Positions 1 to 19,526 of a stretch of DNA of 64,000 nt are shown one piece after another. Position 1 is the first letter of the stretch; the number at the start of each line of letters is the position of its first letter. Position numbers and translations under genes: made by a program. A model generated the notes under the pieces. That model was not told the origin of the DNA. It made no database searches and worked only from the letters and a program-made list of their open reading frames with translations. Origin of the DNA: an uncultured Pseudomonadota bacterium (lineage in GTDB: Bacteria > Pseudomonadota > Alphaproteobacteria > Rs-D84 > CACZYB01); contig CACZYB010000004.1 in assembly GCA_902785275.1 (NCBI GenBank), positions 1-64,000 on the forward strand, in the 5' to 3' direction.

Positions 1-121
1 GATAAATAATCAAAATAGTAAAGAAAAAAGGGTCCTTTTTTGTATATCACTCAAAAATCTTTAATAAATGGCTGTTTCCTGCGAGATACAGAATTTTTGT
101 ATTGCATTTTTATTTGCGGAT

Positions 122-158
122 AAAAAAACTCCCCCGTGTGGAGGAGCTTTTGTTTTTT
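122..158. terminator. Probable intrinsic terminator downstream of rlpA
   Basis: GC-rich hairpin (ctccccc-gtgt-ggaggag) flanked by an A-tract and a T-tract just past the rlpA stop. Confidence 0.6.
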
Positions 159-171
159 AATTTTTTTATTT

Positions 172-1272: not shown

Positions 1273-1328
1273 TTTATCTTCTCCTTTTTACAGAACTATA
1301 ATAACACATTTTTGAAGTGTTTACAAGT

Positions 1329-2105
1329 CTATTTTAAATATAAATACAAAATTATTCCAAGTATAATTCGGTAGATAGCAAATGGCTTGAATGATAAATG
1401 TTTAAGCCAGAACATAATGAACCTTATGCTTATAAGCGAAAATATAAATGAAAAGATGCTTATCAATATTAGCGGATATATATTTATTGTTTCTGGATTT
1501 AGTGCGAATTTTAAAATTCCGCCTAGTCCGACAAGGATTATTGTTGGGATGGAAAGCAAAAATGAAAATTTAAGAGCGTCTTGTCTTTTGTATCCTAACA
1601 TCAAAGCACAGGTTAGGGTGGTCCCGCTTCTGCTTGAACCAGGGATTGATGCAAATGTTTGTGCAGATCCGATAAGAAAAGCATCCCTTAATGAAAGCTT
1701 TTTTATCGTTAAATCCTTTTTACCGAATTTATCGGCGAGAAAGAAAATTGTTCCGAAGATAAGACTTGTGTATATAACAATTCTTGGGTCCCTGAACTTT
1801 ATTTTGAATAGTACAAATATTATGCCGATAATTACGATAGGAATTGTTGCAATGAATAGATTATAAAACATTGAACGATCGTACTTTTTGTTAAATAGGC
1901 TTATGATAATATCTTTGATATCTTTTCTGTAATAGAACATTACCGCCAATAAAGAGCCAATATGTGCGAATAAATCGGCAATTATTCCCTGATCCTTTAT
2001 ATCAAACAGTATTGGAAAAAGCATAAGATGTGCAGATGAACTTATTGGCAAAAATTCAGTAATTCCCTGTATTAAAGATAATAAAATAACTGTTTGAAAG
2101 GTCAT
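1329..2105 (-). CDS. uppP: Undecaprenyl-diphosphate phosphatase
   Basis: QGITEFLPISSSAH and PGSSRSGTT motifs; polytopic membrane protein. Confidence 0.95.
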   Translation of the reverse strand: MTFQTVILLSLIQGITEFLPISSSAHLMLFPILFDIKDQGIIADLFAHIGSLLAVMFYYRKDIKDIIISLFNKKYDRSMFYNLFIATIPIVIIGIIFVLFKIKFRDPRIVIYTSLIFGTIFFLADKFGKKDLTIKKLSLRDAFLIGSAQTFASIPGSSRSGTTLTCALMLGYKRQDALKFSFLLSIPTIILVGLGGILKFALNPETINIYPLILISIFSFIFSLISIRFIMFWLKHLSFKPFAIYRIILGIILYLYLK

Positions 2106-2229
2106 TTTTTTCTCCTGTCTAAAAAAAGCTTGTCTTATTTAAGCTTTTTTGATATAATGGGGTATTATACAGTAATATTTTTTGATATTCTATTACTATT
2201 TTTATTTTTTAATATTGCGGAGTTGTTAA

Positions 2230-2796
2230 ATGGCAAAAAATGAATGGGAAATTACAGTTGGTGACTATGTCGTATATCCTACACACGGTGTTGGTCAAGT
2301 AAAAGAAATAACTGAAGAGGTAATTGCCGGCTTTAAAATTGAGTTTTTGGTTATATTGTTCGCAAAGAACAGAATGACTTTGAAAATACCTGTTGATAAA
2401 ATTGAAGTTTCTGGATTAAGAAAACTTTCCAGTGAATATGAAATCAAAAAAGCTATTGATATTATGAAAACTGCACCACAACAGAAAAGAATTGTTTGGG
2501 CAAAGCGTGCACAAGAATATGAAGAAAAAATTAATTCTGGTGATCCTTTGGTTGTGGCAGAAGTTGTTCGTGATTTGTATAAACGTGCAGACAGAATTGA
2601 ACAATCTTTTAGTGAAAGACAAATTTACGAAGAAGCTTTGGGACGTCTTGCTGATGAATATGCTGCTATTTTCGGACTTCCTTCTGATGAAGCGATTGCA
2701 AAGATTGAAAGTATAATAGAAAAAGAAGATAAAAAGCAACAATCAAATAAAGAAAAAGAAGCTCTTAAGATGGAAGATAAAGATGATGATGAATAA
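2230..2796 (+). CDS. carD: CarD family transcriptional regulator
   Basis: GDYVVYPTHGVG N-terminal motif, conserved Trp (VWAKRAQEYEEKINSGD), SFSERQIYE. Confidence 0.93.
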   Translation: MAKNEWEITVGDYVVYPTHGVGQVKEITEEVIAGFKIEFLVILFAKNRMTLKIPVDKIEVSGLRKLSSEYEIKKAIDIMKTAPQQKRIVWAKRAQEYEEKINSGDPLVVAEVVRDLYKRADRIEQSFSERQIYEEALGRLADEYAAIFGLPSDEAIAKIESIIEKEDKKQQSNKEKEALKMEDKDDDE

Positions 2797-2816
2797 TCGT
2801 TGTTTTTGTTTAAGAT

Positions 2817-2852
2817 AAAAAAGTCCCCATGGATTGATGGGGATTTTATTTT
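2817..2852. terminator. Bidirectional intrinsic terminator between convergent carD and DUF5131 genes
   Basis: Hairpin gtccccat-ggattg-atggggat with A-tract before and T-rich tract after. Confidence 0.7.
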
Positions 2853-2854
2853 GG

Positions 2855-3745
2855 CTATTTATTTTTGTTATCAAACTTTTGTCCGCATTTACCACAGAAT
2901 GAACATCCGTTACATATAAGTCTTGAGCCACAGGTTTCGCAATTTTTACTCCAATGTTTTTGATATATTTCTGTTTCAAACAATGTCTTTGGTAATTCAA
3001 GTTTTATATCTATTGGACGTCCCTTAAATTGAAGGCCGGATTTGTATGCCATTTCACTTTGAAGTCTTTTGTTTGGCATACGGTAAATTTTGCCATCCTT
3101 TTCAAAAATGGTTCCTGTTTCAATAAAGCAAAACATGGTGTTACTTTTTACACATTCATTGTAAAGATCTTTTACCCATTCATATTTGCACATACGGGAA
3201 CCATCATAATTTTCACCACCTGCAATAACTTGTTCTATTATTCCGGTTGAAAGATAATCTTTTAATGAAACAGGTGCAATAAATGGTGCAACCATAACAC
3301 CTTTATGTTTAAAGGGAAGATTAAATAAAATAGGAATTCGTTCATCGGCGCGTTTTTGAGTTTCTGTTGTTACACTGAAAAACACATTTTCCCAACCATC
3401 ACCCCAATCCGGTGGAAGGCAATCTAAAACACGTTCGGGTCTTTTTGTAAGAAGAGAAAATTCAACATCTGGGCGTTGTTTTATTATTTTCCAAATGTCT
3501 TTACGCCATTCATCTGCTTCGGTAAGGAAAAAATCAGATGTAAGGCAAACACGGATATGTTCACCACTTTTTACCTTGTATGAACCGTCTTTGTTTTTAT
3601 GAAGAGGGTAATTGAAATTATTTTTTACCTTATAGATTTTGGAGCCGTCTTGGTTACGTTGTTTATCCAAAAAATACATATAGCAATGGTTACAACCTTC
3701 ACTTTTTTTTATGCAACCATGCCATGGATTCCAGATATCGTGCAT
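2855..3745 (-). CDS. DUF5131 (phage Gp37/Gp68-like) radical SAM-type protein with C-terminal Cys cluster
   Basis: WNPWHGCxKxSEGCxHCY (CX6CX2C), SDFF, LLTKRPER, IAGGEN motifs; C-terminal CETCGSRLICNGCSFCGKC. Confidence 0.88.
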   Translation of the reverse strand: MHDIWNPWHGCIKKSEGCNHCYMYFLDKQRNQDGSKIYKVKNNFNYPLHKNKDGSYKVKSGEHIRVCLTSDFFLTEADEWRKDIWKIIKQRPDVEFSLLTKRPERVLDCLPPDWGDGWENVFFSVTTETQKRADERIPILFNLPFKHKGVMVAPFIAPVSLKDYLSTGIIEQVIAGGENYDGSRMCKYEWVKDLYNECVKSNTMFCFIETGTIFEKDGKIYRMPNKRLQSEMAYKSGLQFKGRPIDIKLELPKTLFETEIYQKHWSKNCETCGSRLICNGCSFCGKCGQKFDNKNK

Positions 3746-4158
3746 TAATCCTTCATTTCTTTTTCAGAAGATTTAAGCATTTCCTCTATATGTTGGATAT
3801 ACTTTTTGGATGTTTCTTTTTCATCGAAACCAAGTTCATATTTATCACCAAATATTGCCAAAGGTACGGCACCAGCATTTGCAATATTTAATTTTTTTGC
3901 ATAGTGGAAGTAATAGTTTGCACCAACCTTTGTTGAGGCATTATGTTTTGTAATTATTAAATTTTTGTATTTTGGAGCAACTTCTTTATCCAAAAATTCC
4001 AATGCGTGGTGGCAATGAGGGCAAGTTGGGCTGTAAAACAAAATCATTTCGTTTTTATTATCCCCGCCAATTGCAGTTTTTGAATTTAGTGTAAATAGAC
4101 CACACATACAAACAAATCCGAGTAATACGATGTTTTTTAATAGCTTTATTTTTTTCAT
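3745..4158 (-). CDS. Exported or membrane-anchored thioredoxin/glutaredoxin-like protein
   Basis: Hydrophobic N-terminus, FYSPTCPHC active-site motif, cis-Pro motif AVP; stop overlaps the next ATG (TAATG). Confidence 0.8.
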   Translation of the reverse strand: MKKIKLLKNIVLLGFVCMCGLFTLNSKTAIGGDNKNEMILFYSPTCPHCHHALEFLDKEVAPKYKNLIITKHNASTKVGANYYFHYAKKLNIANAGAVPLAIFGDKYELGFDEKETSKKYIQHIEEMLKSSEKEMKD

Positions 4159-4235
4159 TTTTCATCCTCTCTGGTAATAATCTTAAATATAAATCAAATT
4201 TATCTTTTTGGCTAGTATTTTTTTTAATTATTTGG

Positions 4236-4264
4236 TTGACAAATTATTTTATTTCTATTATATT
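4236..4264 (+). promoter_or_regulatory. Sigma70-type promoter of the LysM gene
   Basis: TTGACA (4236-4241), 17 bp spacer, TATATT; the TTG used as ORF-track start is this -35 box. Confidence 0.6.
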
Positions 4265-4295
4265 TTTGTCAAAATCGACAAAAGAGGTGTTTACA

Positions 4296-5855
4296 ATGAA
4301 GAAAGTTAGCAAAAAGAAGTCATTAAATAAAGTATCAAAAATAATAATGAGGCTTATTTTAGCAGGTTTGTTGGTATCGACTGTTGCAAATAATGTTCAA
4401 ATTTCAAATATTAAGGAAAAACAGAAATCCGAAGATGAAAATATTGAACTTATCAATGAAAAAATTGAAAAGTATGAAAAACAGATTCAAATTATGATTG
4501 ATCATGAAGAGCTTCAGAATGAAAATGTTGGTAAGCTGATTACTCTTGTTGATAATATGAAAGCTTTGGTTGAAAATGAAAGTAAGCCGGTTGTTGTTGA
4601 AAATGTTTCTGAAAATGCAGAGGTAAAAAATTATGATTTTGTTTCTGATTCATTTATTTATAGTGTGCAAAAGGGTGATACTCTTTCAGAAATAGTTCGT
4701 GAATATTATGGAAAGTATTCTATCAATGCAATGAAGGCAATCGCTTTGGTAAATAAAATTCGCAATGTTAACGAATTGAAAGTTAATCAAGTTATAGAAA
4801 TACCTTCTGTTGAAAAAGTTAAGGTTATGAAGGATAATGGTGAACTTGAAAGTGTTAATCTTACAAATTGGTACAAGAAGAGTAATGTTATAGCTCCGGC
4901 AAAGACAGAAGATGTTGTTGAAGTTGAAGTAATTAAAGAAACTTCTGCACAAAAGGTTGAGAAAGTTTCAGTACAAGAAGAAACTTCTGCACAAAAGGTT
5001 GAGGAAGTTCCAGTACAAGAAGAAGTTCCTGCACAAAAGGTTGAGGAAGTTCCAGTACAAGAAGAAGTTCCTGTATCAAAGGTTGAGGAAGTTCCAGTAC
5101 AAGAAGAAACTTCTGCACAAAAGGTTGAGAAAGTTCCAGTACAAGAAGAAACTTCTGCACCAAAAGAAGAAAAAGCACCAGTACAAGAAGAAGTTGTTGT
5201 TACTCCGTTTGTTAATGAAAATTTGACTGAAGGTGAAAATGTGGAGTTTGAAGAGGTTGAAGAAATTCTTCCACAGATAGAAAAAATTGATGATACAGTT
5301 TTTGTTAATGATGAGGAAATTTCGGAAAATGCTAAACCTGAAGAATTGGTGGATTTAGAAGTAAAAGATGAAGAAATCGAACTTTCATCATCCATAGAAA
5401 ACTTTGATAACAGCAGATATGATGATGCATATTTCAAGGCTTTTGATTTAAATCTTAACTTTGGTAATTCATTAAGAAATGAAGAAAAAGTTTTGGATGA
5501 AACTGTACCTGTATATGAAAAAGTTGAAGATGAAGATGTGAATATTTCATCATCCACAGAAAGTTTTGATAACGGCAAATATGACGATGCATATTTCAAG
5601 GCTTTTGATTTAAATCTTAACTTTGGTAATTCATTAAAGGATGAAGAAGAAACTTCAAAAGTTTCTACACCTGTATATGAAGGGGTGGGAGAAGATGAAG
5701 ATGGTCTTTTCGATGAAGAAATCCTTAATGATTATAACGGAGAAATATTTTATGAAGAATCAAAAGATGATACCGGTGATGTTATAGAGAAAAAAGTTGA
5801 TGCGGACAAAGATATTTCTGATGTTATTGTTGCGTATGCTTCGAAAGTAAGATAA
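4296..5855 (+). CDS. Membrane-anchored LysM-domain protein with coiled coil and acidic repeat region
   Basis: RBS GAGGTG before ATG 4296; N-terminal basic and hydrophobic anchor; LysM motif YSVQKGDTLSEIV..YYG...IALVNKI...LKVNQVIEIP. Confidence 0.8.
   Translation: MKKVSKKKSLNKVSKIIMRLILAGLLVSTVANNVQISNIKEKQKSEDENIELINEKIEKYEKQIQIMIDHEELQNENVGKLITLVDNMKALVENESKPVVVENVSENAEVKNYDFVSDSFIYSVQKGDTLSEIVREYYGKYSINAMKAIALVNKIRNVNELKVNQVIEIPSVEKVKVMKDNGELESVNLTNWYKKSNVIAPAKTEDVVEVEVIKETSAQKVEKVSVQEETSAQKVEEVPVQEEVPAQKVEEVPVQEEVPVSKVEEVPVQEETSAQKVEKVPVQEETSAPKEEKAPVQEEVVVTPFVNENLTEGENVEFEEVEEILPQIEKIDDTVFVNDEEISENAKPEELVDLEVKDEEIELSSSIENFDNSRYDDAYFKAFDLNLNFGNSLRNEEKVLDETVPVYEKVEDEDVNISSSTESFDNGKYDDAYFKAFDLNLNFGNSLKDEEETSKVSTPVYEGVGEDEDGLFDEEILNDYNGEIFYEESKDDTGDVIEKKVDADKDISDVIVAYASKVR
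4938..5189 (+). repeat. Six tandem 42-bp (14-aa) coding repeats, consensus E(T/V)(S/P)AQKVEEVPVQE
   Basis: Units start at 4938, 4980, 5022, 5064, 5106 and 5148. Confidence 0.92.
5383..5681 (+). repeat. Two-copy 162-bp (54-aa) internal duplication containing YDDAYFKAFDLNLNFGNSL
   Basis: 5383-5475 nearly identical to 5545-5637; acctgtatatgaa at 5507 and 5669 (same 162 offset). Confidence 0.9.
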
Positions 5856-5922
5856 AAATTTTTTGCATTGGATTTTTTTATTGCAAAAATATTAAATTTG
5901 ATAGAATATAAATACGTTCTGT

Positions 5923-5999
5923 GACCTCGTAGCTCAGCTGGATAGAGCGACAGCCTCCTAAGCTGTAGGCCGGCGGTTCGAATCTGCCCGGGGTCACCA
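5923..5999 (+). tRNA. tRNA-Arg (anticodon CCT)
   Basis: Acceptor GACCTCG/CGGGGTC, D-arm GCTC/GAGC, anticodon arm ACAGC-CT-CCT-AA-GCTGT, T-loop TTCGAAT, encoded CCA. Confidence 0.97.
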
Positions 6000-6014
6000 A
6001 AAATTTTACAGTAT

Positions 6015-6027
6015 AATCAAATACTTA
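6015..6027 (+). promoter_or_regulatory. IHF-type binding site next to the att site
   Basis: AATCAAATACTTA matches WATCAANNNNTTR exactly, 15 bp after the tRNA CCA. Confidence 0.5.
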
Positions 6028-6362
6028 CAGTCGTTCAAAATGAACTGCATTTTTCTATCAAAAATCTCCGTTGCCGAATTGCACATAAATTCACGTAAAC
6101 AACCCTAGATTCTACCTTATGTTGACGTTTATTGATATAGTTTTCTCATTGCCGAATTGAATATAAGTGTTCATACAATACATGTTTTTCTTACGAAATG
6201 TCTGAATCCATTTCTCGTTAATTTTCTGCCATTTATATTAAGTTTTTATCATATTATTAATAATGGGTTAAAGCCTTCAACCCATTAATAAATCGTGAAT
6301 CTTTTATATAGTTAAATCAACCAAAGCAATGGTGCTTTGGTAACAATAAAAGGAAATAAAAA

Positions 6363-6581
6363 ATGATAAAATATTTAACTCAACAACAAGTTTCAGAAAT
6401 TCTTAACGTAAAAATTTCTACCCTCAACCACCACAGATGCACAAGAAACAAAAACTTCGATATGCCATATGTGAAAGTTGGACGTGTAATCTTGTTCCCA
6501 GAAGAAAAATTCTATGAATGGCTTCAAGGAAAAACTTTTACTCCAGAAAAAGTTGAAGCAGGAAAACCATTATTGGTTTAA
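6363..6581 (+). CDS. Excisionase-like / AlpA-HTH_17 DNA-binding protein
   Basis: YLTQQQVSEILNVKISTLNHHR...MPYVKVGRVILF...EWL pattern; RBS AAGGA; first gene after the tRNA att site. Confidence 0.8.
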   Translation: MIKYLTQQQVSEILNVKISTLNHHRCTRNKNFDMPYVKVGRVILFPEEKFYEWLQGKTFTPEKVEAGKPLLV

Positions 6582-6851
6582 TTAAGTTATCCGGTTATTC
6601 CGGGCAACTTTACATTTTAATGAGTTCATTTAAAACAATCATTAACTGAACGGTGAACATTGTTTCCAAAACATAATGCAAACGTTGCAGCCATTTTTTA
6701 TCTGTTTGATGCACATTAAACGGCTTATGCAACAAAAAAGTTACCACAAACAAAATAGCTAATAAAATCAATTGATACTGCATTTAAAAACCTCACTTTT
6801 TTGCAAATTAGAGAGGATTTTTTTGAAAATGTCAATTAAAATATTTTTATT

Positions 6852-6877
6852 GCCGAGTTTAACCGCTCGGCTTTTTT
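6852..6877 (+). terminator. Intrinsic terminator
   Basis: GCCGAG-tttaaccg-CTCGGC followed by a T-run. Confidence 0.65.
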
Positions 6878-6964
6878 TATTATCAATATCAACAAGCAAA
6901 ACACGCACGTAGGAGGAAAATATGAAACGTTCAATGATAATTAAAAGAAAACGAAATAAATTAA

Positions 6965-7134
6965 AATTAATTTTTTTATATAAATTCCCGTTTGTTTATT
7001 CGGCAATCACTTTTGCCGCTTTTTCTGTATTATCGGTTAAGGTAAAATACGCCACCAATGTTTTGGTTTCAACTGCTGTTGTCATCATAGCACTTTCCAT
7101 TAAAATTGCTGTTAAAAATTTTTTTATTTTTCAT
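6965..7134 (-). pseudogene. Flavodoxin pseudogene fragment (signal peptide plus N-terminal flavodoxin motif)
   Basis: RBS AGGAG and ATG at 7134, +1 slip in the A-run, then KKFLTAILMESAMMTTAVETKTLVAYFTLTDNTEKAAKVIAE*TNGNLYK; stop at 6998-6996; truncated. Confidence 0.75.
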
Positions 7135-7141
7135 TCTCCTT

Positions 7142-7684
7142 TTAAATTAATTCAGCTATTTTTGTTTCAACGTCTTTCATATCAACCGTCGGTTCAAGGC
7201 GTTCAACCACTTCACCCTGTCGATTTACCAAAAACTTTGTAAAATTCCATTTGATGTCAGATTTCTTATCCCAATCTGGATCTGCCTTTGAAAGCATATC
7301 TGCCAATAAAGAACTTAATTTATGTTCACCAAATCCTTTAAATCCCTTTTGTGATTTTAGATAAGTATAGATTGGTAATTCGTTTTCACCATTCACATCT
7401 GATTTTTTCATCTGATTAAATTTTGTATTATAGTGTAGTTGGCAGAATTGATGAACTTCCTCATCTGTACCTGGTGTTTGATGACCAAATTGATTACAAG
7501 GTATATCAATAATTTCCAAACCTTTACCATGATATTTTTCATAAAGTTTTTCCAAATCTTCGTATTGAGGAGTAAATCCACATCCAGTAGCTGTATTTAC
7601 TATTAATATTACTTTACCTTTTAAATCCATTAGAGATAATTCTGTTCCATCAGATTTTGGAATTGAATAGTCATAAATTGTCAT
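7142..7684 (-). CDS. Glutathione peroxidase family (Cys-type, probably thioredoxin-dependent) peroxidase
   Basis: VNTATGCGFTPQY, PCNQFG, resolving Cys (FCQLHY), KWNFTKFLV. Confidence 0.93.
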   Translation of the reverse strand: MTIYDYSIPKSDGTELSLMDLKGKVILIVNTATGCGFTPQYEDLEKLYEKYHGKGLEIIDIPCNQFGHQTPGTDEEVHQFCQLHYNTKFNQMKKSDVNGENELPIYTYLKSQKGFKGFGEHKLSSLLADMLSKADPDWDKKSDIKWNFTKFLVNRQGEVVERLEPTVDMKDVETKIAELI

Positions 7685-8127
7685 TTTGATATCCTTACTT
7701 TATTAAGTTTAAATAATTTATCTCGCTCACGAACAAGCTCTTTATTCTTAAAAACATTTTCTTCGCCATGTTTTAATGCTTCTTCATAATAACGAATTTT
7801 AAAATCAAGTTTTTTCATAGTTTGTTTCAAAGCCTTAATTTCTTGCTGACATTTGATTTTTTGTTCCTTAAACATTTCAGCGCGTTCAACTAAACTAGAA
7901 TTACCTTTTTTTAACAGATTTATATAGTGTTTTATGTCTTTTAACTGAAGTCCTGTTGATTTAAGACACTCTAACATCATAAGCCAGTTTATATCTGCAT
8001 CTGTAAACTGACGTACACCTGATTTGGCTTTACTAACATTAGGAAGTAAACCTTCCTTATCGTAAAATCTTAAAGTATGGGTTGTTAATCCCATCATTTC
8101 TGCCACTTTTCCAATTGTATAAGTCAT
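7681..8127 (-). CDS. MerR family regulator, NmlR/AdhR subfamily
   Basis: MTYTIGKVAEMMGLTTHTLRFYDKEGLLPNV; W48 and Cys54 in WLMMLECLKSTG, as in NmlR; flanked by NmlR-like operators. Confidence 0.9.
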   Translation of the reverse strand: MTYTIGKVAEMMGLTTHTLRFYDKEGLLPNVSKAKSGVRQFTDADINWLMMLECLKSTGLQLKDIKHYINLLKKGNSSLVERAEMFKEQKIKCQQEIKALKQTMKKLDFKIRYYEEALKHGEENVFKNKELVRERDKLFKLNKVRISK

Positions 8128-8148
8128 TTTTGTCCTCTATTTAACTAA

Positions 8149-8177
8149 AGAATAACCTAAAGTTCGCTTTAAGTCAA
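8149..8177 (-). promoter_or_regulatory. merR/gpx promoter with operator in a 17-bp spacer (autorepression-type)
   Basis: Minus strand TTGACT (8177-8172), 17 bp, TATTCT (8154-8149); imperfect palindrome CTTAAAG-CGAA-CTTTAGG. Confidence 0.75.
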
Positions 8178-8196
8178 ATATTTTTTTTAATAATAC

Positions 8197-8227
8197 TTGA
8201 CTTAGAGCTAACTCTAAGATGTAAAAT
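8197..8227 (+). promoter_or_regulatory. MerR-activated promoter: 19-bp spacer with NmlR/AdhR-type operator
   Basis: TTGACT (8197-8202), 19 bp, TAAAAT (8222-8227); perfect palindrome CTTAGAG-CTAA-CTCTAAG at 8201-8218. Confidence 0.88.
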
Positions 8228-8259
8228 GATTCTTAAGTAAATTTTTAAAGGAGAAAAAT

Positions 8260-8649
8260 ATGAAAGTATCATCAGTAATTGCTTTTATAATGACAATTTT
8301 AATAGGAGAAAGTGCAATGGCTATAACAGTGAATATTTATTATACAGGTGAAAACGGAAATGCTCGTAAATTTGCCGAAGAAATGGAACAAAGTGGTACA
8401 ATTGCAGCTATTCGTGCAGAAGAAGGAAATATAAAATATGAATATTTTTATCCTAAAAATGATCCAGAAACAATTTTATTGATTGATAGTTGGGACAGTC
8501 AAGAGGCTATTGATAAACATCATGCAACACCGATGATGGATAATATTACAGAATTACGTAATAAATATAATTTGCATATGAAAGTTGAACGTTATATTGA
8601 AGATACAAATGGAATACCAGAAAAGGATAAAAACTTTATTAAGAACTAA
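8260..8649 (+). CDS. Antibiotic biosynthesis monooxygenase (ABM) / putative quinol monooxygenase family protein
   Basis: IRAEEGNIKYEYF, ILLIDSW..QEAIDKHHATPMM motifs; short leader before MAITVNIYY. Confidence 0.85.
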   Translation: MKVSSVIAFIMTILIGESAMAITVNIYYTGENGNARKFAEEMEQSGTIAAIRAEEGNIKYEYFYPKNDPETILLIDSWDSQEAIDKHHATPMMDNITELRNKYNLHMKVERYIEDTNGIPEKDKNFIKN

Positions 8650-8658
8650 AAAATATTA

Positions 8659-9768
8659 ATGTTTGAGTATAAAATGGGAATGTGGATTGTAATAATGTTT
8701 GTTGGTTTGTTTTTTACTACAGTATCTTTACTGTACTTAAAAAGCATGGTTAAAAAATTTTTGCCAGTTAATGTTAAGAATAAATCTTTGATAAGTTCAT
8801 TGATAGTTGTTTCAATATTTAGTGTTATTGGAATTTCTCTAAATTTCATAAATGCAATAATTTGTGCAATATATTTTGCAATGATTTGGTGCATTTGTGA
8901 TTTAGTATTTGGCAGAATAAAAAAGTCATATAAACATTATTACGCAGGATGGGTTGCAACTATTTTAAGTAGTATTATCCTTTCTTGTGGTTGGTATTTA
9001 GATCATAATGTATGGAAGACTGAATATAACATTACTACACAAAAGAATGTTCAAAATCTTAAAGTTGCAATGTTTGCTGATTCACACTTAGGAACAACCT
9101 TTAATGCCGATGGATTTGCAAAACATCTTGAAACTATTGCATCAGAAAAACCTGATATATTGGTTATTGCAGGTGATTTTGTAGATGATGATACTACAAA
9201 AGAAGATATGTTAAAAGCAGTAAAGTATTTAGGTAAATTTAAAACTAAATATGGAATATATTTTGCTTTTGGTAATCATGACAAAGGATATTATGGGCCT
9301 GTTTATCGTGGATTTAGTGGACAAGATTTGATAAGTGAACTTGAAAAAAACAACATAATAATTTTACGAGATGAAATAAAAACTATTGCTGATAAGTTTT
9401 ATATTATAGGTAGAAAAGATTATTCGGTTGAACGTGAACAACATGGTAATCGTAAATCAATGTATGAACTTGTTAAAGGATTGGATAATAACAAGTATAC
9501 TATTGTTGTAGATCATCAACCAACAGATTATGAAAATCAAACAAAGTCAAATGTTGATTTAGTTTTATCTGGCCATACTCATGGTGGTCAACTTTTCCCA
9601 TTTAATAGTGTTGGAAAATGGATTGGCGCAAATAATTTGGTTTATGGACATGAAAAGAAAAACATTACTGATTTTATTGTAACTTCCGGTATTTCTGATT
9701 GGACAATAAAATTTAAAACAGGTACAAAGTCTGAATTTGTAATTATTAATATTAAGAAAGGAATATAA
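8659..9768 (+). CDS. Membrane-anchored calcineurin-like metallophosphoesterase (YkuE/YaeI-like)
   Basis: N-terminal TM helices; DSHLG, GDFVD, GNHD, HQP and SGHTHGGQ motifs. Confidence 0.9.
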   Translation: MFEYKMGMWIVIMFVGLFFTTVSLLYLKSMVKKFLPVNVKNKSLISSLIVVSIFSVIGISLNFINAIICAIYFAMIWCICDLVFGRIKKSYKHYYAGWVATILSSIILSCGWYLDHNVWKTEYNITTQKNVQNLKVAMFADSHLGTTFNADGFAKHLETIASEKPDILVIAGDFVDDDTTKEDMLKAVKYLGKFKTKYGIYFAFGNHDKGYYGPVYRGFSGQDLISELEKNNIIILRDEIKTIADKFYIIGRKDYSVEREQHGNRKSMYELVKGLDNNKYTIVVDHQPTDYENQTKSNVDLVLSGHTHGGQLFPFNSVGKWIGANNLVYGHEKKNITDFIVTSGISDWTIKFKTGTKSEFVIINIKKGI

Positions 9769-9769
9769 A

Positions 9770-11530
9770 ATGTACGATATTTTAAAAACAATAAATTCAC
9801 CATTAGATTTAAAAAAACTAAACTCTAATCAGTTAGAAGTTTTAGCATCAGATGTTAGAGAAGCATTATTTAATCGTCTAACTAAAATTGGAGGTCATTT
9901 TGGTCCTAACTTCGGTATTGTTGAAACAGAAATAGCAATGCATTATGTGTTTGAATCACCAAAGGATAAATTTGTTTTTGATGTATCTCATCAAAGCTAT
10001 ACTCATAAAATGCTTACTGGTCGAAGAAATGGATATATTGATGATAATTGCTTTAAGGAAGATTCTGGTTATACAAATCCAGAAGAAAGTGAACATGATT
10101 TATTTAATATTGGACATACATCAACATCTATATCTTTAGCATCAGGACTTGCAAAAGCTCGTGATTTAAAAGGTGAAAAATATAATGTTATAGTGTTAAT
10201 TGGAGATGGTTCACTCTCTGGTGGTGAAGCATTAGAAGCTCTTAATTTTGTTAGTTCAGATTTAAAATCAAACTTTATTATTATTGTAAATGATAATCAA
10301 CAATCTATTGCTGAAAACCATGGTGGGTTATATCAAAATTTAACTGAATTACGTGAAACAAAAGGAAAATCAGAAAATAATTTCTTTAAAACTTTAGGTT
10401 TGGATTATATATACGAAGAAAATGGAAATGATATACAATCTTTGATAAAGGTTTTTGAAAAAGTAAAGAATATAGATCATCCTGTTGTTGTTCATATAAA
10501 TACTCAAAAAGGTAAGGGATATAAACTTGCTGAAATAGATAAAGAAATATGGCATTGGCATATGCCATTTGATAGAGAAACTGGAAAAACAAGTATTTCT
10601 TTTTCTGGTGAAAGTTATACAAGTTTAACATCTCAATACATTATGGATAAAGCAAAACAAGATAAAGATTTTGTAATAATTACTCCTGCTATGCCAATGA
10701 CAGCTGGATTATCACAAGATTTACGTGAAAAACTTGGAAATCAATATGTCGATACAGGTATTGCTGAAGAACACGCTGTTGCTTTTGCTTCTGGAATTGC
10801 TAAAAATGGAGGAAAACCATTATTGGTAACAAATGCAACTTTTATACAACGTTCTTATGATCAGATTTCTCAAGATGTTTGTATTAATAATAATCCAGTA
10901 ACAATTTTACTTAATTGTTCATCATTTGATAGTTTAACAGATGTAACACATTTGGGAATTTTTGCAATTTCTGCATTTTCTAATATTCCTAATTTAGTAA
11001 TGTTGGCTCCTACTTCAAAAGATGAATATTTAAATATGCTTGATTGGTCTGTTGAACAAAAAGATCATCCAGTTATGATTTTGATGCCAGGTAATGCAGT
11101 AACATCTCGTAATACAGAAAATAATTTTGATAAAATTAATACCTTTAAAATGGAACAATTTGGTGAAAAAGTTGCCATATTAGCATTAGGCGATTTTTAT
11201 CAAAAAGGTGAAGAGTTATCAATTCAAATTGAAAATACTTTTGGTTTTAAACCTACATTAATTAATCCAAGATTTGCAAATGGATTGGATCAAAAAATAT
11301 TAAAAGATTTACAAAAAAATCACAATCTTGTTATTACATTAGAAGATGGTGTTTTAGATGGTGGATTTGGAGAAAAGGTTGCAAATTTTTATTCTACAAG
11401 TGACATGAAAGTTAAAACCTATGGTCTTAAAAAAGAATTTTATGATCGTTATAATCCACAGGAACTTTTAAAACAACTTGGTATGACAACAGAGCAGATT
11501 ATTAATGATATAAACAATTTAATTAAGTAA
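9770..11530 (+). CDS. DXS-family ThDP-dependent enzyme (atypical 1-deoxy-D-xylulose-5-phosphate synthase homolog)
   Basis: GGHFGPN, FDVSHQSYTHKMLTGR, GHTSTS, GDG...NDN ThDP motif, GIAEEHAV, TFIQRSYDQ, LEDG; acceptor-phosphate residues are substituted (see findings). Confidence 0.88.
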   Translation: MYDILKTINSPLDLKKLNSNQLEVLASDVREALFNRLTKIGGHFGPNFGIVETEIAMHYVFESPKDKFVFDVSHQSYTHKMLTGRRNGYIDDNCFKEDSGYTNPEESEHDLFNIGHTSTSISLASGLAKARDLKGEKYNVIVLIGDGSLSGGEALEALNFVSSDLKSNFIIIVNDNQQSIAENHGGLYQNLTELRETKGKSENNFFKTLGLDYIYEENGNDIQSLIKVFEKVKNIDHPVVVHINTQKGKGYKLAEIDKEIWHWHMPFDRETGKTSISFSGESYTSLTSQYIMDKAKQDKDFVIITPAMPMTAGLSQDLREKLGNQYVDTGIAEEHAVAFASGIAKNGGKPLLVTNATFIQRSYDQISQDVCINNNPVTILLNCSSFDSLTDVTHLGIFAISAFSNIPNLVMLAPTSKDEYLNMLDWSVEQKDHPVMILMPGNAVTSRNTENNFDKINTFKMEQFGEKVAILALGDFYQKGEELSIQIENTFGFKPTLINPRFANGLDQKILKDLQKNHNLVITLEDGVLDGGFGEKVANFYSTSDMKVKTYGLKKEFYDRYNPQELLKQLGMTTEQIINDINNLIK

Positions 11531-11545
11531 CGAAAGGTAATATAA

Positions 11546-12112
11546 ATGAAGAAAGATATAAGTAAAAGTTTAATTATGGCTCCAATGCCTGTATTAATCA
11601 TTGGAACTTATGATGAAAATGGAATTCCAAATGCAATGAATGCTGCATGGGGTGTGCAATCTGATTACGAACAAATCACCATATTCCTTGGTAAGCATAA
11701 AACCACCGATAATTTACAAATCAACAATGGCTTTACCGTAGCTTTTGCAACAAAGGAAACTATGATTGCATCAGATTATTTCGGTATGGAAACTGGTGCA
11801 AGAATTAACAAGATTGAAAAAGCAGGTATTACTGCAACAAAGTCAAAACACGTCAATGCTCCAGTATTTGAGGAATATCCTGTAACAATAGAATGTGAAA
11901 TTGCCGATATGGTTGAAGAAACAGATGGTTATCGTTTGGTTGGTCAGGTCGTAAATGTGATTGCAGATGAAAAAGTACTTGATGCAAAAGGCAATATTGA
12001 TTTAGGTAAAATGAATATTCTTTGCTACGACAGCGCCTCCCATTCTTATCGTGAAATTGGAAACATTGTTGGCCAGGCTTTCCATGCAGGATTAGCAATC
12101 AAAAATAAATAG
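11546..12112 (+). CDS. Flavin reductase / flavoredoxin family protein
   Basis: PMPVLIIGTYDENGIPNAMNAAWG, SDYFG, VNAPVFEEYPVTIEC motifs. Confidence 0.88.
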   Translation: MKKDISKSLIMAPMPVLIIGTYDENGIPNAMNAAWGVQSDYEQITIFLGKHKTTDNLQINNGFTVAFATKETMIASDYFGMETGARINKIEKAGITATKSKHVNAPVFEEYPVTIECEIADMVEETDGYRLVGQVVNVIADEKVLDAKGNIDLGKMNILCYDSASHSYREIGNIVGQAFHAGLAIKNK

Positions 12113-12116
12113 CAAT

Positions 12117-12144
12117 AGGGGTGTGTGAAACACCCTTTTATTTT
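12117..12144 (+). terminator. Intrinsic terminator of the ABM-to-flavin reductase operon
   Basis: gggtgt-gtgaa-acaccc hairpin followed by a T-rich tract. Confidence 0.7.
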
Positions 12145-12225
12145 ATATTGAAAATATGGCATATAATTGATAAAATATACGTATAAAAAGAATTAATAGC
12201 TAAAGATTTGAAGGAGAATATGTAA

Positions 12226-12546
12226 ATGAAAAAGATTTTATCTATAATTTGTTTTTGTCTGATTTGTTCAAATGCTAATGCTTTTGAATCAAAATATAAA
12301 AGTATGGTTGAAGAACCAGGAGATGTTATTTGGGCAGAATGTGAAAATAGAATCGAAAAAAATGAAAGAACTGGAAGTATATGTTTATGTACTTATTATG
12401 TGTTTCAAGCAAAAAAAGGTGGTTTTATGAATACACTATATTTCTTGGAGGAATCATCAGAACAAGATTTTTATAATGTTTTGGATGCTAGTATCAAGAA
12501 ATGTGAAATAGAAACAAGAGATATGAAATCTGGAGTATCTTTGTAA
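12226..12546 (+). CDS. Hypothetical secreted protein with four Cys in the mature part
   Basis: RBS AAGGAG, signal peptide ending ANA|F. Confidence 0.65.
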   Translation: MKKILSIICFCLICSNANAFESKYKSMVEEPGDVIWAECENRIEKNERTGSICLCTYYVFQAKKGGFMNTLYFLEESSEQDFYNVLDASIKKCEIETRDMKSGVSL

Positions 12547-12708
12547 AAAAAGTAGAAATGTTTAGATTGTTTACATATAATAATTTTTTTAGCAGGAATA
12601 TATGTTATAAAACAAATATATCTTTGTGTAGAGAAAAGAATATTATGAAAATGGAAAATTTAAAAATTCTCATTATGTTTCTAGATAAAAATTTTAGGTA
12701 AGTGATTT

Positions 12709-13215
12709 ATGGTCGAAGAAATTGTATTGAAATCTGCTTGTATAATAAATAATCGTGATTACTTAGATTATTTATCCGCTTTAGGACCAACAATTGCTGC
12801 ATTTTTTGCATTTTTTGTTGCTTTAAGACAAACTCGTATTAGCAAACAGCAAAAAAATTTAGAACTTTTGAAATTAAGATTAAAACATAAACAAAATTTT
12901 ATATCTATCTTATCAAAATTAATGAAAACAGCAATATCTGTAAATGAAACAAATATATCAGAATCTCAAAGTAATATTCTGGCAAATATTTCTTTGTTAA
13001 TAGATGTTGTCTCTGAAGGAAAATATTTATTTAATGAAGAAGTATTTGAAAATGAAAATAAGATTCTTTTTGCATTTCATAATTTTTGTGATACATTAAA
13101 TAATAGTAATTTTAATGAAATAGAAAATAAGAAAAAATTATTTAATAATTTTATAAATGATATTGATAAAATAAAAAATCTACAAGACAAAATTTTAAAA
13201 GAAACACAAATATAA
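12709..13215 (+). CDS. Hypothetical single-TM protein of mobile-element type
   Basis: One TM helix followed by RQTRISKQQKNLELLKLR and a helical C-terminus; very AT-rich. Confidence 0.6.
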   Translation: MVEEIVLKSACIINNRDYLDYLSALGPTIAAFFAFFVALRQTRISKQQKNLELLKLRLKHKQNFISILSKLMKTAISVNETNISESQSNILANISLLIDVVSEGKYLFNEEVFENENKILFAFHNFCDTLNNSNFNEIENKKKLFNNFINDIDKIKNLQDKILKETQI

Positions 13216-13218
13216 TAA

Positions 13219-13689
13219 ATGATTAAAGTTCTCTTTGTTTGTCTTGGGAATATTTGTCGGTCGCCTATGGCACAGTTTGTGTTTCAACATATGGTGGATG
13301 AGGCTGGACTTACTCATTTGTTTGAAATTGATTCCGCTGGGACAGAAAGTTATAACGAAATAAATCACGCCGGTATTCACTATGGCACACGTGATATTTT
13401 GACCGAGATGAAGGTACCTTTTGTTGAACATTATTCCCGCCAAATTCGGAAATTCGACTATGAAAAATTCGACTATATTATTGCGATGGATGAGAGTAAT
13501 GTGGAGGATATTCATGCGTTGATTGGTGCGGATAAAGATCACAAAATCAGCCTTTTTCTAGACTATACTTCACACCCAAGAAAAATCAAAAATCCATGGT
13601 ATACCGGCAACTTCGATGAAACATATTGGGATGTTTACGAAGGTTGTCAATGCTTCTTGGAATATCTTAGAAGAGAAGGGAAAATATAA
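13219..13689 (+). CDS. Low-molecular-weight protein-tyrosine-phosphatase family protein
   Basis: P-loop VCLGNICRSPMA, DSAGT, FDYIIAMD; DPWY motif reads NPWY. Confidence 0.9.
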   Translation: MIKVLFVCLGNICRSPMAQFVFQHMVDEAGLTHLFEIDSAGTESYNEINHAGIHYGTRDILTEMKVPFVEHYSRQIRKFDYEKFDYIIAMDESNVEDIHALIGADKDHKISLFLDYTSHPRKIKNPWYTGNFDETYWDVYEGCQCFLEYLRREGKI

Positions 13690-13832: not shown

Positions 13833-14707
13833 ATGCATGATATTTGGAACCCATGGCATGGTTGCATAAAAAAGAGTGAAGGCTGTCAACATTGCTTTAT
13901 GTATTTTTTTGGATAGGTAACGAAATGTTGATGGATCTAAAATATACCGTGTTAAAAAACAACTTTGATTACCCTTTACACAAAAACGTTGATGGTTCGT
14001 ATAAAATTAAAAGTGGTGAATGTTTACGTGTGTGCTTAACTTCGGATTTCTTTTTGGAAGAAGCAGATGCATGGTGTGATGAAGTGTGGAATATTATCAA
14101 AAAACGCCCAGATATCGGATTTTATCTTTTAACTAAACGACCAGAAAGAGTTGTCGAGTGTTTACCGAAAGATTGGAGAGATGGTTGGGATAATGTGTTT
14201 TTTTCTGTAACGGCGGAAAATCAGTTAAGAGCAGATGAACGCTTGCCAATTTTAATAGATTTACCTTTCAAACATAAGGGGGTAATGACAGCACCGTTTA
14301 TCGGACAAATCAGTTTACAAGAATGGCTTAAAACGGGACAAATAGAACAAGTAGTAGCTGGTGGTGAAAATTACGATGGTAGCAGAGTTTTAAAATATGA
14401 ATGGGTAAAATCTCTTTATGAAGAATGTAAAGCGAATAATGTGATGTTTTGTTTTATAGAAACAGGAACAAAGTTTGAAAAAAATGGCAAAATTTATACT
14501 ATGTCAAACAAAAGATTACAAAGCAAAATGGCATATAAGTCTGGTTTACAGTTTGAAGGAAAGCCTATTAAATGGAATTTATATAAACCTCAAAATGAAC
14601 TTTTTGATGATGGGTGGTATCAAAAACATTGGCGAAAGAACTGTGAAACTTGTGGTTCAAGACTTATTTGTAACGGTTGTTCAGATTGCGGTGAATGTGA
14701 GAAATAA
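13833..14707 (+). pseudogene. DUF5131 radical SAM-type pseudogene, paralog of 2855-3745
   Basis: ATG 13833 MHDIWNPWHGCIKKSEGCQHCFMY; +1 slip in the T-run 13904-13910, TAA at 13918-13920 where the paralog has Gln, second +1 slip in the A-run near 13954-13959; the rest is collinear with the intact copy. Confidence 0.88.
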
Positions 14708-16480: not shown

Positions 16481-16527
16481 TAACTTATTCCGCATCGTTT
16501 TCTTTATATAAAAAATTGGGAAATGGC

Positions 16528-16556
16528 TTGACAAATCATAGGAAAAGGTGTATAAA
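16528..16556 (+). promoter_or_regulatory. rpmI-rplT promoter
   Basis: TTGACA (16528-16533), 17 bp, TATAAA (16551-16556). Confidence 0.7.
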
Positions 16557-16634
16557 TCTGTTTATCTTTGGCAGAACGGGCTTGAAATTGGCTGCCTGTC
16601 TGCTGTTTGTTTAACCTAAATATAAGGAGTCGAA

Positions 16635-16838
16635 ATGCCAAAATTAAAAACTAGAAGTGCTTTTAAACTTCGTTTTCGCTTGACTGCAAGTGGTAAAGTA
16701 AAAACAAGTCGCGCTCATCATAATCACTTTATGAGAAGAAAATCTGCAAGATCATTGACTGAAGCTATTCATGGTCAATACCTTGAAGGAAGCGATAAAA
16801 AAATAGTAGCAAGATCAATGCCTTATGGTATGAAATAA
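16635..16838 (+). CDS. rpmI: 50S ribosomal protein L35
   Basis: [23 protein letters not shown]...MPYG; directly upstream of rplT. Confidence 0.96.
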
Positions 16839-16852
16839 GAGGAGTTTAAAAA

Positions 16853-17218
16853 ATGGCACGTGTAAAAAGAGGTCTTACAAAAAGACAAAGACATAAAAAA
16901 GTATTATCAATGGCAAAGGGTTACCGTGGTCGTAGCTCATCTTGCTATCGTATCGCACATGAACGCGTTGAAAAAGGTTTGCAATATGCTTACCGTGATA
17001 GAAAAAGAAACAAATCTAATTTCAGATCTTTGTGGATTACTCGTATCAATGCTGCTGTTCGTGCATACGGAATTACATATTCAGAATTCATGAACGCTTT
17101 GACAAAGGCTAACATCACTCTTGATAGAAAAGTATTGGCTGATATGGCTGTACGTGATGCTGATGCATTCAAAGTTGTTGTTGAAAATGCAAAACGATTT
17201 ATCGGAGAAGCTAAATAA
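16853..17218 (+). CDS. rplT: 50S ribosomal protein L20
   Basis: [39 protein letters not shown]. Confidence 0.98.
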
Positions 17219-17260
17219 GCCCTCGGATATGTTGCATATTCAATAAAAAGGTATTATAAT

Positions 17261-17289
17261 AAGAGGGCTTGGAAACAGGCCCTTTTTTA
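17261..17289 (+). terminator. Intrinsic terminator after rplT
   Basis: agggctt-ggaaac-aggccct followed by a T-run. Confidence 0.7.
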
Positions 17290-17312
17290 TTTTTTTATAT
17301 GAGGAAACGGAA

Positions 17313-18302
17313 ATGGTAGATGCGAAAATAAATCCTTTAAGTTTAGAAGGTCGTCCTCTTTCTGAACGAAAGAATATTTATGATTTGCGCAGTATTGATG
17401 TTTCTAAGGAAAATTATTTGTGGAATGATTTGTTTTCTTCTTTATCTTTAGAAGATTTTATATTTGATAGTAAAACAAAATTTCCACAATCTGTTTCTCA
17501 GAAATTTTCTGATATGTTAGAGAAGGCAAAAAATCGTGGACTTGGGATAAATTCTTTACATCAAAAGGGATATACAGGAAAAGGAGCAACAGTTGCTATT
17601 ATTGATCAACCATTACTTGTTTCACATGAGGAAATAAAAGATAATGTTATTTATTATGAAGAAGTAGGGGAACGTCAACCTTGGTCTAATCAGGCATCAC
17701 AACATGGTATTGCTGTTTCTTCCATATTATGTGGTAAAAATATTGGTGTTGCACCAGATGCAAAACTTGCCTATTTTTCAGTAGCAAAGACAAATCCTTA
17801 TGATTATATAAATGCAATATATAGTGTAATTGAGTATAATAAGACTTTGCCAAAGGAAAATAAAATTCATACAGTTTCAATTTCCTATGGTATTCCAACA
17901 GAAAATGAAGAACAAGAAAAAAGATTGTTAGATGTAATGCAAAAGGCGCAAAAAGCAGATATTTTTGTTATTACGACATCTCTTGGGAAAACTCATAACC
18001 TTAGTTTTATAGGTGGAGATAGAAATATCAACAATAATTTAGATAATCCACAGGAATACAAAGAACCACTTTTTATTCAGAAAAGAAATTTATCTTCGAA
18101 TAATAAAAATTCTGATATAAACAAAACGCTCATTGTTCCACAAGATAGAGTAACTGTGGCATCTCCAACAGGAAACAATGATTATGCTTATTATACAAAT
18201 GGCGGAATGAGTTGGGCTGTTCCATATCTTGCTGGTGTTTATGCTATTGCAAAAAATTCATTTCCAGAAATTACACCTGAAAATTTTTTGATATTGCAAT
18301 AA
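17313..18302 (+). CDS. S8 family (subtilisin-like) serine peptidase, probably frameshifted near the C-terminus (extended frame ends 18463)
   Basis: Triad motifs TGKGATVAIIDQ, HGIAVSSILCG, GGMSWAVPYLAG. Confidence 0.85.
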   Translation: MVDAKINPLSLEGRPLSERKNIYDLRSIDVSKENYLWNDLFSSLSLEDFIFDSKTKFPQSVSQKFSDMLEKAKNRGLGINSLHQKGYTGKGATVAIIDQPLLVSHEEIKDNVIYYEEVGERQPWSNQASQHGIAVSSILCGKNIGVAPDAKLAYFSVAKTNPYDYINAIYSVIEYNKTLPKENKIHTVSISYGIPTENEEQEKRLLDVMQKAQKADIFVITTSLGKTHNLSFIGGDRNINNNLDNPQEYKEPLFIQKRNLSSNNKNSDINKTLIVPQDRVTVASPTGNNDYAYYTNGGMSWAVPYLAGVYAIAKNSFPEITPENFLILQ

Positions 18303-18452
18303 AAACAGGATTAAAAAAAGAAATTTGTGGTAAAAAATGTAGTATAATAAATTCTGAAAATATAATAAAAATATTGGAATTTGAAAATGCTTCTGGTAAA
18401 ATTTTAAACAAACAAAATAATAATAACAATAATGTAAAAATGGATATTACAA

Positions 18453-19514: not shown

Positions 19515-19526
19515 GGAGAATTAAAA

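Follow-up and report, generated by a model that had tools for sequence, protein, structure and literature searches.

The 64,000-nucleotide (nt) stretch analysed here, referred to as the window, lies at the start of contig CACZYB010000004.1 (C4) in assembly GCA_902785275.1 of an uncultured alphaproteobacterium of the Rs-D84 lineage. This assembly (G000) comprises 1,048,135 bases in 18 contigs with 32% G+C and is 95.7% complete. The window carries a real NmlR-type divergon, in which a MerR-family regulator gene stands back to back with its targets, and the main cargo of the divergon is dxsL, a gene of the DXS family of thiamine diphosphate (ThDP) enzymes, named after the synthase that makes DXP (1-deoxy-D-xylulose 5-phosphate). 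No known role for such an enzyme is available in this genome, and this conclusion is regarded as firm. An earlier note, made from the sequence alone, had proposed here a stress regulon of the NmlR/AdhR type with a repurposed DXS-like enzyme as its main effector. The positions it gave for all genes, for Cys54 of the regulator, for both operators and their spacing and for the terminator held in open reading frame (ORF) and family scans (Table 1), and its interpretation was supported in part.

Table 1 Features of the divergon and of its left-hand boundary, in window coordinates (aa, amino acids)
Feature	Position	Strand	Evidence or detail
tRNA-Arg (CCT), left edge of the variable stretch	5923-5999	+	ARAGORN, Rfam
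gpx, glutathione-peroxidase-family thiol peroxidase	7142-7684	-	PF00255, E 5.4e-38, 129.4 bits, full profile
merR, NmlR-subfamily MerR regulator, 148 aa, Cys54	7681-8127	-	PF13411, PF00376
Left promoter/operator, for merR-gpx	8149-8177	-	-35 TTGACT 8177-8172; 6-of-7 inverted repeat 8156-8173
Right promoter/operator	8197-8227	+	TTGACT 8197-8202, 19-nt spacer, TAAAAT
abm, ABM-domain protein	8260-8649	+	PF03992, E 4e-12, domain at residues 22-95
mpe, membrane-anchored calcineurin-like metallophosphoesterase	8659-9768	+	PF00149, catalytic domain at residues 134-309
dxsL, short-type DXS-family ThDP enzyme, 586 aa	9770-11530	+	NF008968, TIGR00204, NF003933
flr, Flavin_Reduct (flavin-reductase-like) protein	11546-12112	+	PF01613, E 7e-14
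Intrinsic terminator, 8-bp stem hairpin followed by a T-run	12117-12137	+	Terminator scan, sequence

The two arms of the divergon are separated by a merR-abm intergenic region of 132 nt that holds two back-to-back promoters. On the left, merR and gpx overlap by 4 nt and are probably co-transcribed. The peroxidase that the earlier note had placed on this arm was recovered, with the GSHPx domain (PF00255) present in the gpx protein and a score of 144.6 bits against the BtuE-type model NF007900, under its cut-off of 270. The right arm likewise proved to be the tight, terminated operon first described, with gaps of only 9, 1 and 15 nt between abm, mpe, dxsL and flr. The right operator is a perfect inverted repeat of two 7-nt arms around 4 nt (7-4-7) at 8201-8218, which starts inside the -35 box and overlaps it by 2 nt. 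Such -35 elements embedded in an inverted repeat are a peculiarity of NmlR regulons (PMC5001606), and the right promoter shows both features of the NmlR type, an inverted repeat over the -35 box and a spacer of 19-20 nt. The left promoter, as called by a promoter scan, has a 17-nt spacer and TATTCT and is weaker than the right one. Aligned over their 18 nt, the matching left and right operators are identical at 14 positions. A strict operator pattern occurred exactly twice in the 1,048,135 bases of the assembly, both times at this divergon, and the joined -35/half-site string TTGACTTA[AG]AG was also found exactly twice, again only here. Since the operator motif has no further occurrence, the regulon looks confined to this divergon as far as motif searches can tell.

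Among the NCBIfam models, the regulator matched that of NmlR best (NF041849, 96.7 bits), the next MerR model reaching 51.6 bits. Its closest solved structures were those of Haemophilus influenzae NmlR (HiNmlR; 5D8C, 5D90 and 5E01), with 113 bits and a gap-free alignment over residues 1-121. As in HiNmlR, a MerR winged-helix domain and a dimerisation helix are present and a C-terminal sensor is lacking; the 27-residue tail had no family match. Cys54, which defines the NmlR/AdhR subfamily (PMC5001606), was present in the translation as first reported. It aligned to the critical Cys54 of HiNmlR and was invariant in 10 of 10 aligned sequences, namely the window regulator, seven Firmicute MerRs encoded beside the DXS subfamily and two same-genus relatives. 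Of the residues through which NmlR contacts DNA, Tyr17, Arg20, Phe21 and Lys24 (PMC5001606), the window regulator keeps R20, F21 and K24, whereas position 17 is His. Cys71 of HiNmlR is not kept, and the second cysteine of the window regulator (C92) falls two positions off Cys95 in the alignment. Both regulator genes are divergent from target genes, with an inverted repeat over the -35 box. However, HiNmlR uses one shared inverted repeat and controls adhC-estD, whereas the window has two separate operators in front of a peroxidase and a DXS-family operon, with no adhC or estD under control. The absence of adhC, the defining NmlR/AdhR target, had been noted from the window and was extended to the whole assembly, in which the TIGR02818 model found no match. 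In Bacillus subtilis, the targets of AdhR (YraB) are adhA, yraA and yraC, and the regulon is not known to include a ThDP enzyme. AdhR, a carbonyl-stress MerR activator, shares the subfamily cysteine with the window regulator (PMC5001606). Cys54, three of the four DNA-contact residues, the closest structure and the promoter design together support a predicted membership of the regulator in the NmlR/AdhR group. NmlR-like genes, 62-65% identical, were also seen in three relatives of the same genus (L068, L069 and L070 in genomes G018, G014 and G007), where each is divergent from a Flavodoxin_4 gene and is itself followed by yceG; no Flavodoxin_4 homologue was found in G000. The genus therefore has a small NmlR regulon with varying cargo.

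The product of dxsL, the only DXS-family gene in G000, was aligned with E. coli Dxs (NC_000913) and with representatives of a 50%-identity library, and pocket statistics were taken over 54 subfamily sequences from related loci. The equivalents of E. coli H49, H80, D152, N181, H299, E370, R398 and H431 are kept in dxsL and were invariant in 54 of 54 members. For the canonical enzyme, PMC11019550 gives R420, R478 and Y392 as the conserved pocket for D-glyceraldehyde 3-phosphate (D-GAP), and bioRxiv 2025.10.24.684457 describes a network of H431, D427, R99, H49 and H299 that holds lactyl-ThDP until D-GAP binds. Neither the pocket (R420, R478, Y392) nor the gating pair (D427, R99) is retained in dxsL. 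Y392 is replaced by N355, R420 by C383 and D427 by T390; R478 aligns to G441 or to a gap; and R99 aligns, depending on the alignment, to N93 or E97, so that no basic residue stands there. The Y392 position is N in 47 of the 54 members and the D427 position T in 52, the R420 position is occupied by Y (39), F (8), C (6) or N (1), and a one-residue deletion at R478 is common to all 54. Judged by these alignments, the pocket changes are consistent across the subfamily rather than random. By comparison, eight canonical-length representatives (P0162-P0206) kept Y, R and D, with R in six and K in two at the R478 position. Also missing from the short clade are ~35 residues around E. coli positions 193-235; the alignment of canonical proteins to dxsL falls into two stretches, that of short proteins into a single one. 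Set against the canonical DXP synthases of E. coli (2O1S) and D. radiodurans (2O1X, 6OUV), dxsL thus shares the three-domain fold family, the ThDP and catalytic residues and scores above the cut-offs of the DXS profiles, but it is shorter, has Y392, R420, D427 and R478 replaced or deleted, and belongs to a genome in which no DXP consumers were found. The literature search found no report of this short subfamily in clade analyses of DXP synthases (DXPS), and nothing relevant on DXS-like genes with MerR or on DXS paralogues in Firmicutes with the mevalonate (MVA) pathway; for NmlR in connection with deoxy-D-xylulose it returned a single Listeria genome note.

Profile searches of G000 returned no match for Dxr, IspG, IspH, ThiG, PdxJ or HMG-CoA reductase, and Dxr and IspG were found in none of 41 genomes of the order, 31 of them at least 90% complete. 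Because Dxr, IspH, IspG, ThiG and PdxJ were not found, dxsL cannot be the housekeeping enzyme of the methylerythritol phosphate (MEP) pathway in this genome, the case that the earlier note had itself set against its proposal, nor can it supply the formation of isoprenoids, thiamine or pyridoxal here. A role outside the MEP pathway and linked to stress is, for this genome, well supported. A dxsL homologue was present in one of the 41 genomes of the order, the window's own, and the gene is therefore an accessory acquisition in this lineage. Undecaprenyl-diphosphate synthase (UppS) is encoded at G000:C1:256083-256745 (L067), though Dxr, IspG, IspH and HMG-CoA reductase are undetectable. These gut bacteria with genomes of ~0.9 Mb may therefore rely on outside isoprenoid precursors, including isopentenyl diphosphate.

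The distribution of the arrangement was surveyed with one genome per species, and 63 loci with dxsL relatives were obtained. Identity to dxsL was 75-81% in alphaproteobacterial metagenome-assembled genomes (MAGs) from gut and rumen (73% in L055) and 61-75% in Clostridia and Bacilli. Neighbours were analysed at 57 loci, after L004, L012, L050, L052 and L062 had been dropped for want of a called full-length gene and L064 as an outlier of 34% identity. The promoter design counted as recurrence was TTGAC[T/A/C] with a 7-4-7 inverted repeat from its fifth base and a long spacer. At least seven Firmicute loci, L037, L042, L045, L047, L054, L062 and L063, have an NmlR-type promoter no more than ~200 nt upstream of their DXS-like gene, and variant palindromes occupied the same position in L026, L027, L030, L034 and L035. 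In L003, an alphaproteobacterial MAG with its own canonical DXS and Dxr, such a promoter precedes by 55 nt a six-gene cluster encoding, in order, an FMN_red protein with a twin-arginine (TAT) signal, Flavodoxin_4, DUF362, an alpha/beta hydrolase, an ABM protein and the DXS-like enzyme. Altogether, 13 NmlR-type sites were counted over the 57 loci (1.62 Mb, both strands included), of which 6 were located just upstream of the DXS-like gene or cluster. A MerR gene was found within three genes in 9 of 57 loci; counted among Firmicute loci the figure is 9 of 30, with direct adjacency in 7. On this genomic evidence, the recurrence of the regulator-promoter-enzyme association across phyla appears firm.

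Other neighbours were labelled by Pfam on the first 150 proteins, by BLASTP spread of these labels and by Pfam on 77 unlabelled proteins within two genes. Of the 57 loci, 24 encode a small flavoprotein (Flavodoxin_4, FMN_red or Flavin_Reduct) no more than three genes away, and in 19 its gene is directly adjacent. At the same distance, CMD/cupin proteins occurred in 10 loci, TetR and YjbR in 5 each, aldo-keto reductases and alpha/beta hydrolases in 4 each, and ABM, by ORF call, in 3. When ABM homologues were sought by tblastn, they were detected near the DXS subfamily in 8 alphaproteobacterial loci (63-83% identity), and Flavin_Reduct homologues adjoin it in 7 loci. In L042 and L063, both from the Intestinibacter group, a Flavin_Reduct gene lies directly downstream of the DXS-like gene and divergent from a gene for an HxlR-type regulator; this pair looks like a second electrophile-type regulatory unit.

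A quick maximum-likelihood tree (IQ-TREE; midpoint root for drawing only) united 26 alphaproteobacterial rows, the window protein among them, in one clade (SH-aLRT 99), and its sister group was made up of 23 Firmicute rows. Six further Firmicute rows fell outside both, and the canonical enzymes were separated from the short clade by the midpoint root. This topology fits a presumed transfer from Firmicutes to gut Alphaproteobacteria and from there to this genome. A DNA comparison with 13 genomes of the same genus showed a conserved backbone at positions ~1-4300 and 16500-20000, and variable sequence between them from the tRNA-Arg gene to ~16500. The gene order is not peculiar to the assembly: in a sheep-gut run of another study, contigs join merR to abm, abm to mpe and dxsL, and dxsL to flr as in the window, at ~95% identity. 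In run X3 of a third study, one contig keeps merR, mpe and dxsL and has 1212 other bases in place of abm (window 8278-8668).

The account favoured here, to which we give an even chance as a whole, is that of an acquired NmlR-type divergon with an aldehyde-ligating DXS-family enzyme. A horizontally acquired divergon would be run by the thiol switch of the NmlR-subfamily MerR regulator, whose dimer would bind both operators, 7-4-7 inverted repeats that are nearly identical and that each begin within a TTGACT -35 box. Once a carbonyl, electrophilic or nitrosative signal had modified Cys54, the over-long spacer would be untwisted, the known mechanism of MerR proteins, and transcription would be switched on for merR-gpx on the left arm and for abm-mpe-dxsL-flr on the right arm. 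The dxsL enzyme would form the hydroxyethyl-ThDP carbanion from pyruvate and add it to aldehydes through the remodelled, uncharged acceptor pocket, the acceptors being non-phosphorylated aldehydes and possibly still D-GAP. Reactive carbonyls would thereby be removed without glutathione; peroxides, quinones and flavins would fall to the peroxidase, the ABM protein and the flavin reductase. By analogy, such aldehyde chemistry is plausible, because canonical DXPS also accepts other aldehydes, nitroso compounds and O2 (PMC8015787) and its carbanion reduces a redox-active oxime, giving acetate (bioRxiv 2025.03.03.641193). More broadly, and with considerable doubt, the short DXS clade might consist of widespread, horizontally mobile and stress-inducible ThDP carboligases that scavenge reactive aldehydes under NmlR-type switches in Firmicutes and gut Alphaproteobacteria. 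They would be a glutathione-independent counterpart of AdhC, with DXP synthesis as one of several activities.

Several observations weigh against the aldehyde-ligation account. What the sequences show is the gene content, the operators, the subfamily features of the regulator, the missing DXP sinks, the pocket changes and the recurrence of promoter and gene elsewhere; the inducing signal, the co-transcription of the genes and all of the chemistry are inferred. The regulator misses the NmlR equivalog cut-off (NF041849, 96.7 against 175 bits); the assignment to the NmlR/AdhR type made in the earlier note therefore stands on Cys54, three of the four DNA-contact residues, the closest structure and the promoter, and fails on this score and on the adhC target. 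In the neighbourhood check suggested there, the NmlR-type promoter recurred in Firmicutes and in L003 and a MerR gene in Firmicutes, but 19 of 57 loci have none of the seeded redox or regulator families within three genes, several of them in plainly housekeeping surroundings, and no alphaproteobacterial locus besides the window has an adjacent MerR gene. An apparent enrichment of flavoprotein genes near the DXS-like gene (29 of 300 near genes against 15 of 412 far genes) was given little weight, being biased because the seeds were drawn from near genes and the loci are related. Partial coverage of gpx, of abm running into mpe, of dxsL and of flr came from contigs of a sheep-gut RNA library; it is compatible with expression of the locus, although DNA carry-over is possible.

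The remaining points on that side concern the enzyme and bear on the foremost rival, in which dxsL is a genuine short-type DXP synthase that binds D-GAP differently. Here DXP would be a dead end or have another fate, or the gene would be a recent passenger without a selected role; as a sub-variant, the phosphoesterase of the operon might remove the phosphate from DXP, which would provide an overflow valve for triose phosphate. We consider this rival possible but on the whole doubtful. The dxsL protein exceeds the curated DXS cut-offs (TIGR00204, 483.4 against 465.95 bits; NF003933, 631 against 395) as well as that of NF008968 (857.8 against 510). The last model is not specific to the short form, because two of the ORFs that carried it over the cut-off in 4 of 150 sampled Clostridia are 618 and 629 aa long; the control genomes of B. 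thetaiotaomicron and L. lactis match it too. A structure from the same short clade, PDB 9KPQ, aligns end to end with dxsL without the long insert (730 bits) and was deposited under the name DXS. It differs from dxsL in keeping Tyr at the E. coli Y392 position and in having Trp at the R420 position, and the literature search found no publication on it. On the other side, R420, R478, Y392 and D427 are all replaced in dxsL, and the R478A substitution alone raises the Km for D-GAP to 1400 uM (PMC11019550).

Carrier genomes divide along the same line. Dxr was cross-tabulated in 36 genomes that carry the short enzyme (G000, G001-G005, G196-G213 and G214-G225); it was found in 15 and not in 21, counts of absence on which the unreported completeness of the carrier MAGs bears. 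A canonical full-length DXS is also present in 9 of the 15 Dxr-positive carriers (G004, G197, G207, G216, G217, G218, G220, G221 and G224), the search for it covering these 15 and 7 of the 21 Dxr-negative carriers. In the other six, G001, G210, G211, G214, G215 and G225, no further DXS homologue was found; three of these assemblies belong to the Intestinibacter group, and IspH and ThiG are additionally present in G001. Their enzymes share the N/Y/T/deletion pocket, the gene in G001 is preceded by an NmlR-type promoter (L042), and G214 and G215 have closely similar upstream sequence. The simplest reading of this gene content is that the short enzyme does supply DXP in these six, where it is the only DXS homologue found, and the subfamily may still make DXP; a lack of the canonical D-GAP residues is therefore no proof that DXP synthesis has been lost. 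The idea of a repurposed enzyme is supported in G000 by the missing MEP or other DXP sink and the remodelled D-GAP pocket, and is weakened where the short form is the sole DXS homologue beside Dxr. Against the DXP synthase reading, ThiG and PdxJ were found in 0 of 18 Dxr-negative carriers searched (all but G219, G222 and G223), yet the protein is 63-82% conserved across two phyla. The Lactococcus lactis control, which matches NF008968 and ThiG and not Dxr, favours DXP synthesis. We take the dxsA gene of L. lactis to be of the NF008968 type. Counting against the rival, deletion of dxsA is reported as viable, and its activity is assumed, not assayed, in PMC7864038. Aldehyde ligation and DXP synthesis could be reconciled if the short enzyme, with its remodelled and uncharged pocket, were a broad aldehyde-accepting carboligase still able to use D-GAP, which would act as MEP entry enzyme where the pathway exists and as carbonyl scavenger elsewhere. 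Split matches in G001 had been considered as a broken canonical DXS and were rejected; they match a transketolase-like protein of two subunits, likewise present in G197, G207 and G210. The C-terminal subunit of this pair (G001:C2:78652-80416 in G001) reaches 163-223 bits against the DXS profile, an unusually high score.

A second rival, which we judge improbable, takes dxsL as a pyruvate:flavin or pyruvate:quinone oxidoreductase. The carbanion would be oxidised by a partner flavoprotein or quinone to acetyl-ThDP and acetate, and pyruvate would thus power reductive detoxification. The 24 of 57 loci with small flavoproteins nearby argue for it, as do the two small flavoprotein genes that open the L003 operon, the NmlR-like genes divergent from Flavodoxin_4 in G018, G014 and G007, and the reduction of O2 and of the oxime by the DXPS carbanion described in the two sources cited above. 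However, gene sets for electrophile stress ordinarily include flavoproteins, so that their presence nearby does not have to reflect electron transfer; the enzyme itself shows no evident flavin-binding element, and 33 of the 57 loci lack a flavoprotein within three genes. That the region is a chance mosaic on a genomic island, where MerR controls only merR and gpx and the right-hand genes share no function, is very unlikely: the sequence past tRNA-Arg is variable among same-genus genomes, abm is replaced in one metagenome contig, and homologues of mpe and flr occur in other contexts in relatives, but the better operator sits in the right-hand promoter, the four genes lie 1-15 nt apart before one shared terminator, and the pairing of operator and DXS-like gene recurs in other phyla.

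DXS is known both as a textbook example of a branch-point enzyme and as a drug target. The short DXS subfamily is retained in at least 18 genomes for which no known use of DXP was found, and its gene is repeatedly placed behind a promoter of the electrophile-sensing type. This suggests either that DXP has an unrecognised fate or that the alternative activities, so far seen only in vitro for canonical DXPS, are used physiologically. If the favoured aldehyde-ligation account is true, the NmlR/AdhR regulon would be widened beyond thiol-dependent dehydrogenases. The distribution also flags a probable systematic over-annotation, in which genomes are called MEP-positive on this gene alone.

Some further observations concern the other genes of the divergon. 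The N-terminus of the ABM protein appears signal-peptide-like. The mpe gene is single-copy in G000, and a possible identity as the lipid A enzyme LpxG or LpxH was set aside: LpxI is encoded elsewhere in the genome, the LpxG model gave 65 bits against a cut-off of 350, and the YaeI model was likewise far under its cut-off. The idea had come from the relative G008, where an mpe homologue of 68% identity lies beside ruvC-lpxC-lpxL, downstream of lpxL-lpxC-ruvC (L072, G008:C42:1902-5827); in G000 this trio is on C3 without mpe. A complex prediction for the DXS-like and Flr proteins scored 0.00, and no inference was drawn from it. Rfam detected no riboswitch in 5500-13500, its sole match there being the tRNA.

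The variable stretch begins with a small helix-turn-helix gene at 6363-6581 that is excisionase-like (PF12728, 24.5 bits, under the cut-off) and had no PHROGs match. Two inverted copies of a DUF5131 / phrog_2045 gene, at 2855-3745 (-) and 13892-14707 (+), with 72% DNA identity, flank the tRNA and the stress cluster. Left of the tRNA, 4236-5855 (+) encodes a 539-aa protein with a weak LysM match and a series of acidic repeats in which V, E, P and Q are frequent. To the right of the divergon, a low-molecular-weight phosphatase gene (13219-13689) has an 89% identical second copy at G000:C2:25656-26105, and the segment 15026-15638 is repeated with 89% identity at G000:C10:3210-3820. Sequence 76-99% identical to the window's first 100-134 bases is also present close to the ends of contigs C3, C5, C9, C10, C11 and C13, and window positions 1-134 are probably a dispersed repeat that broke the assembly.

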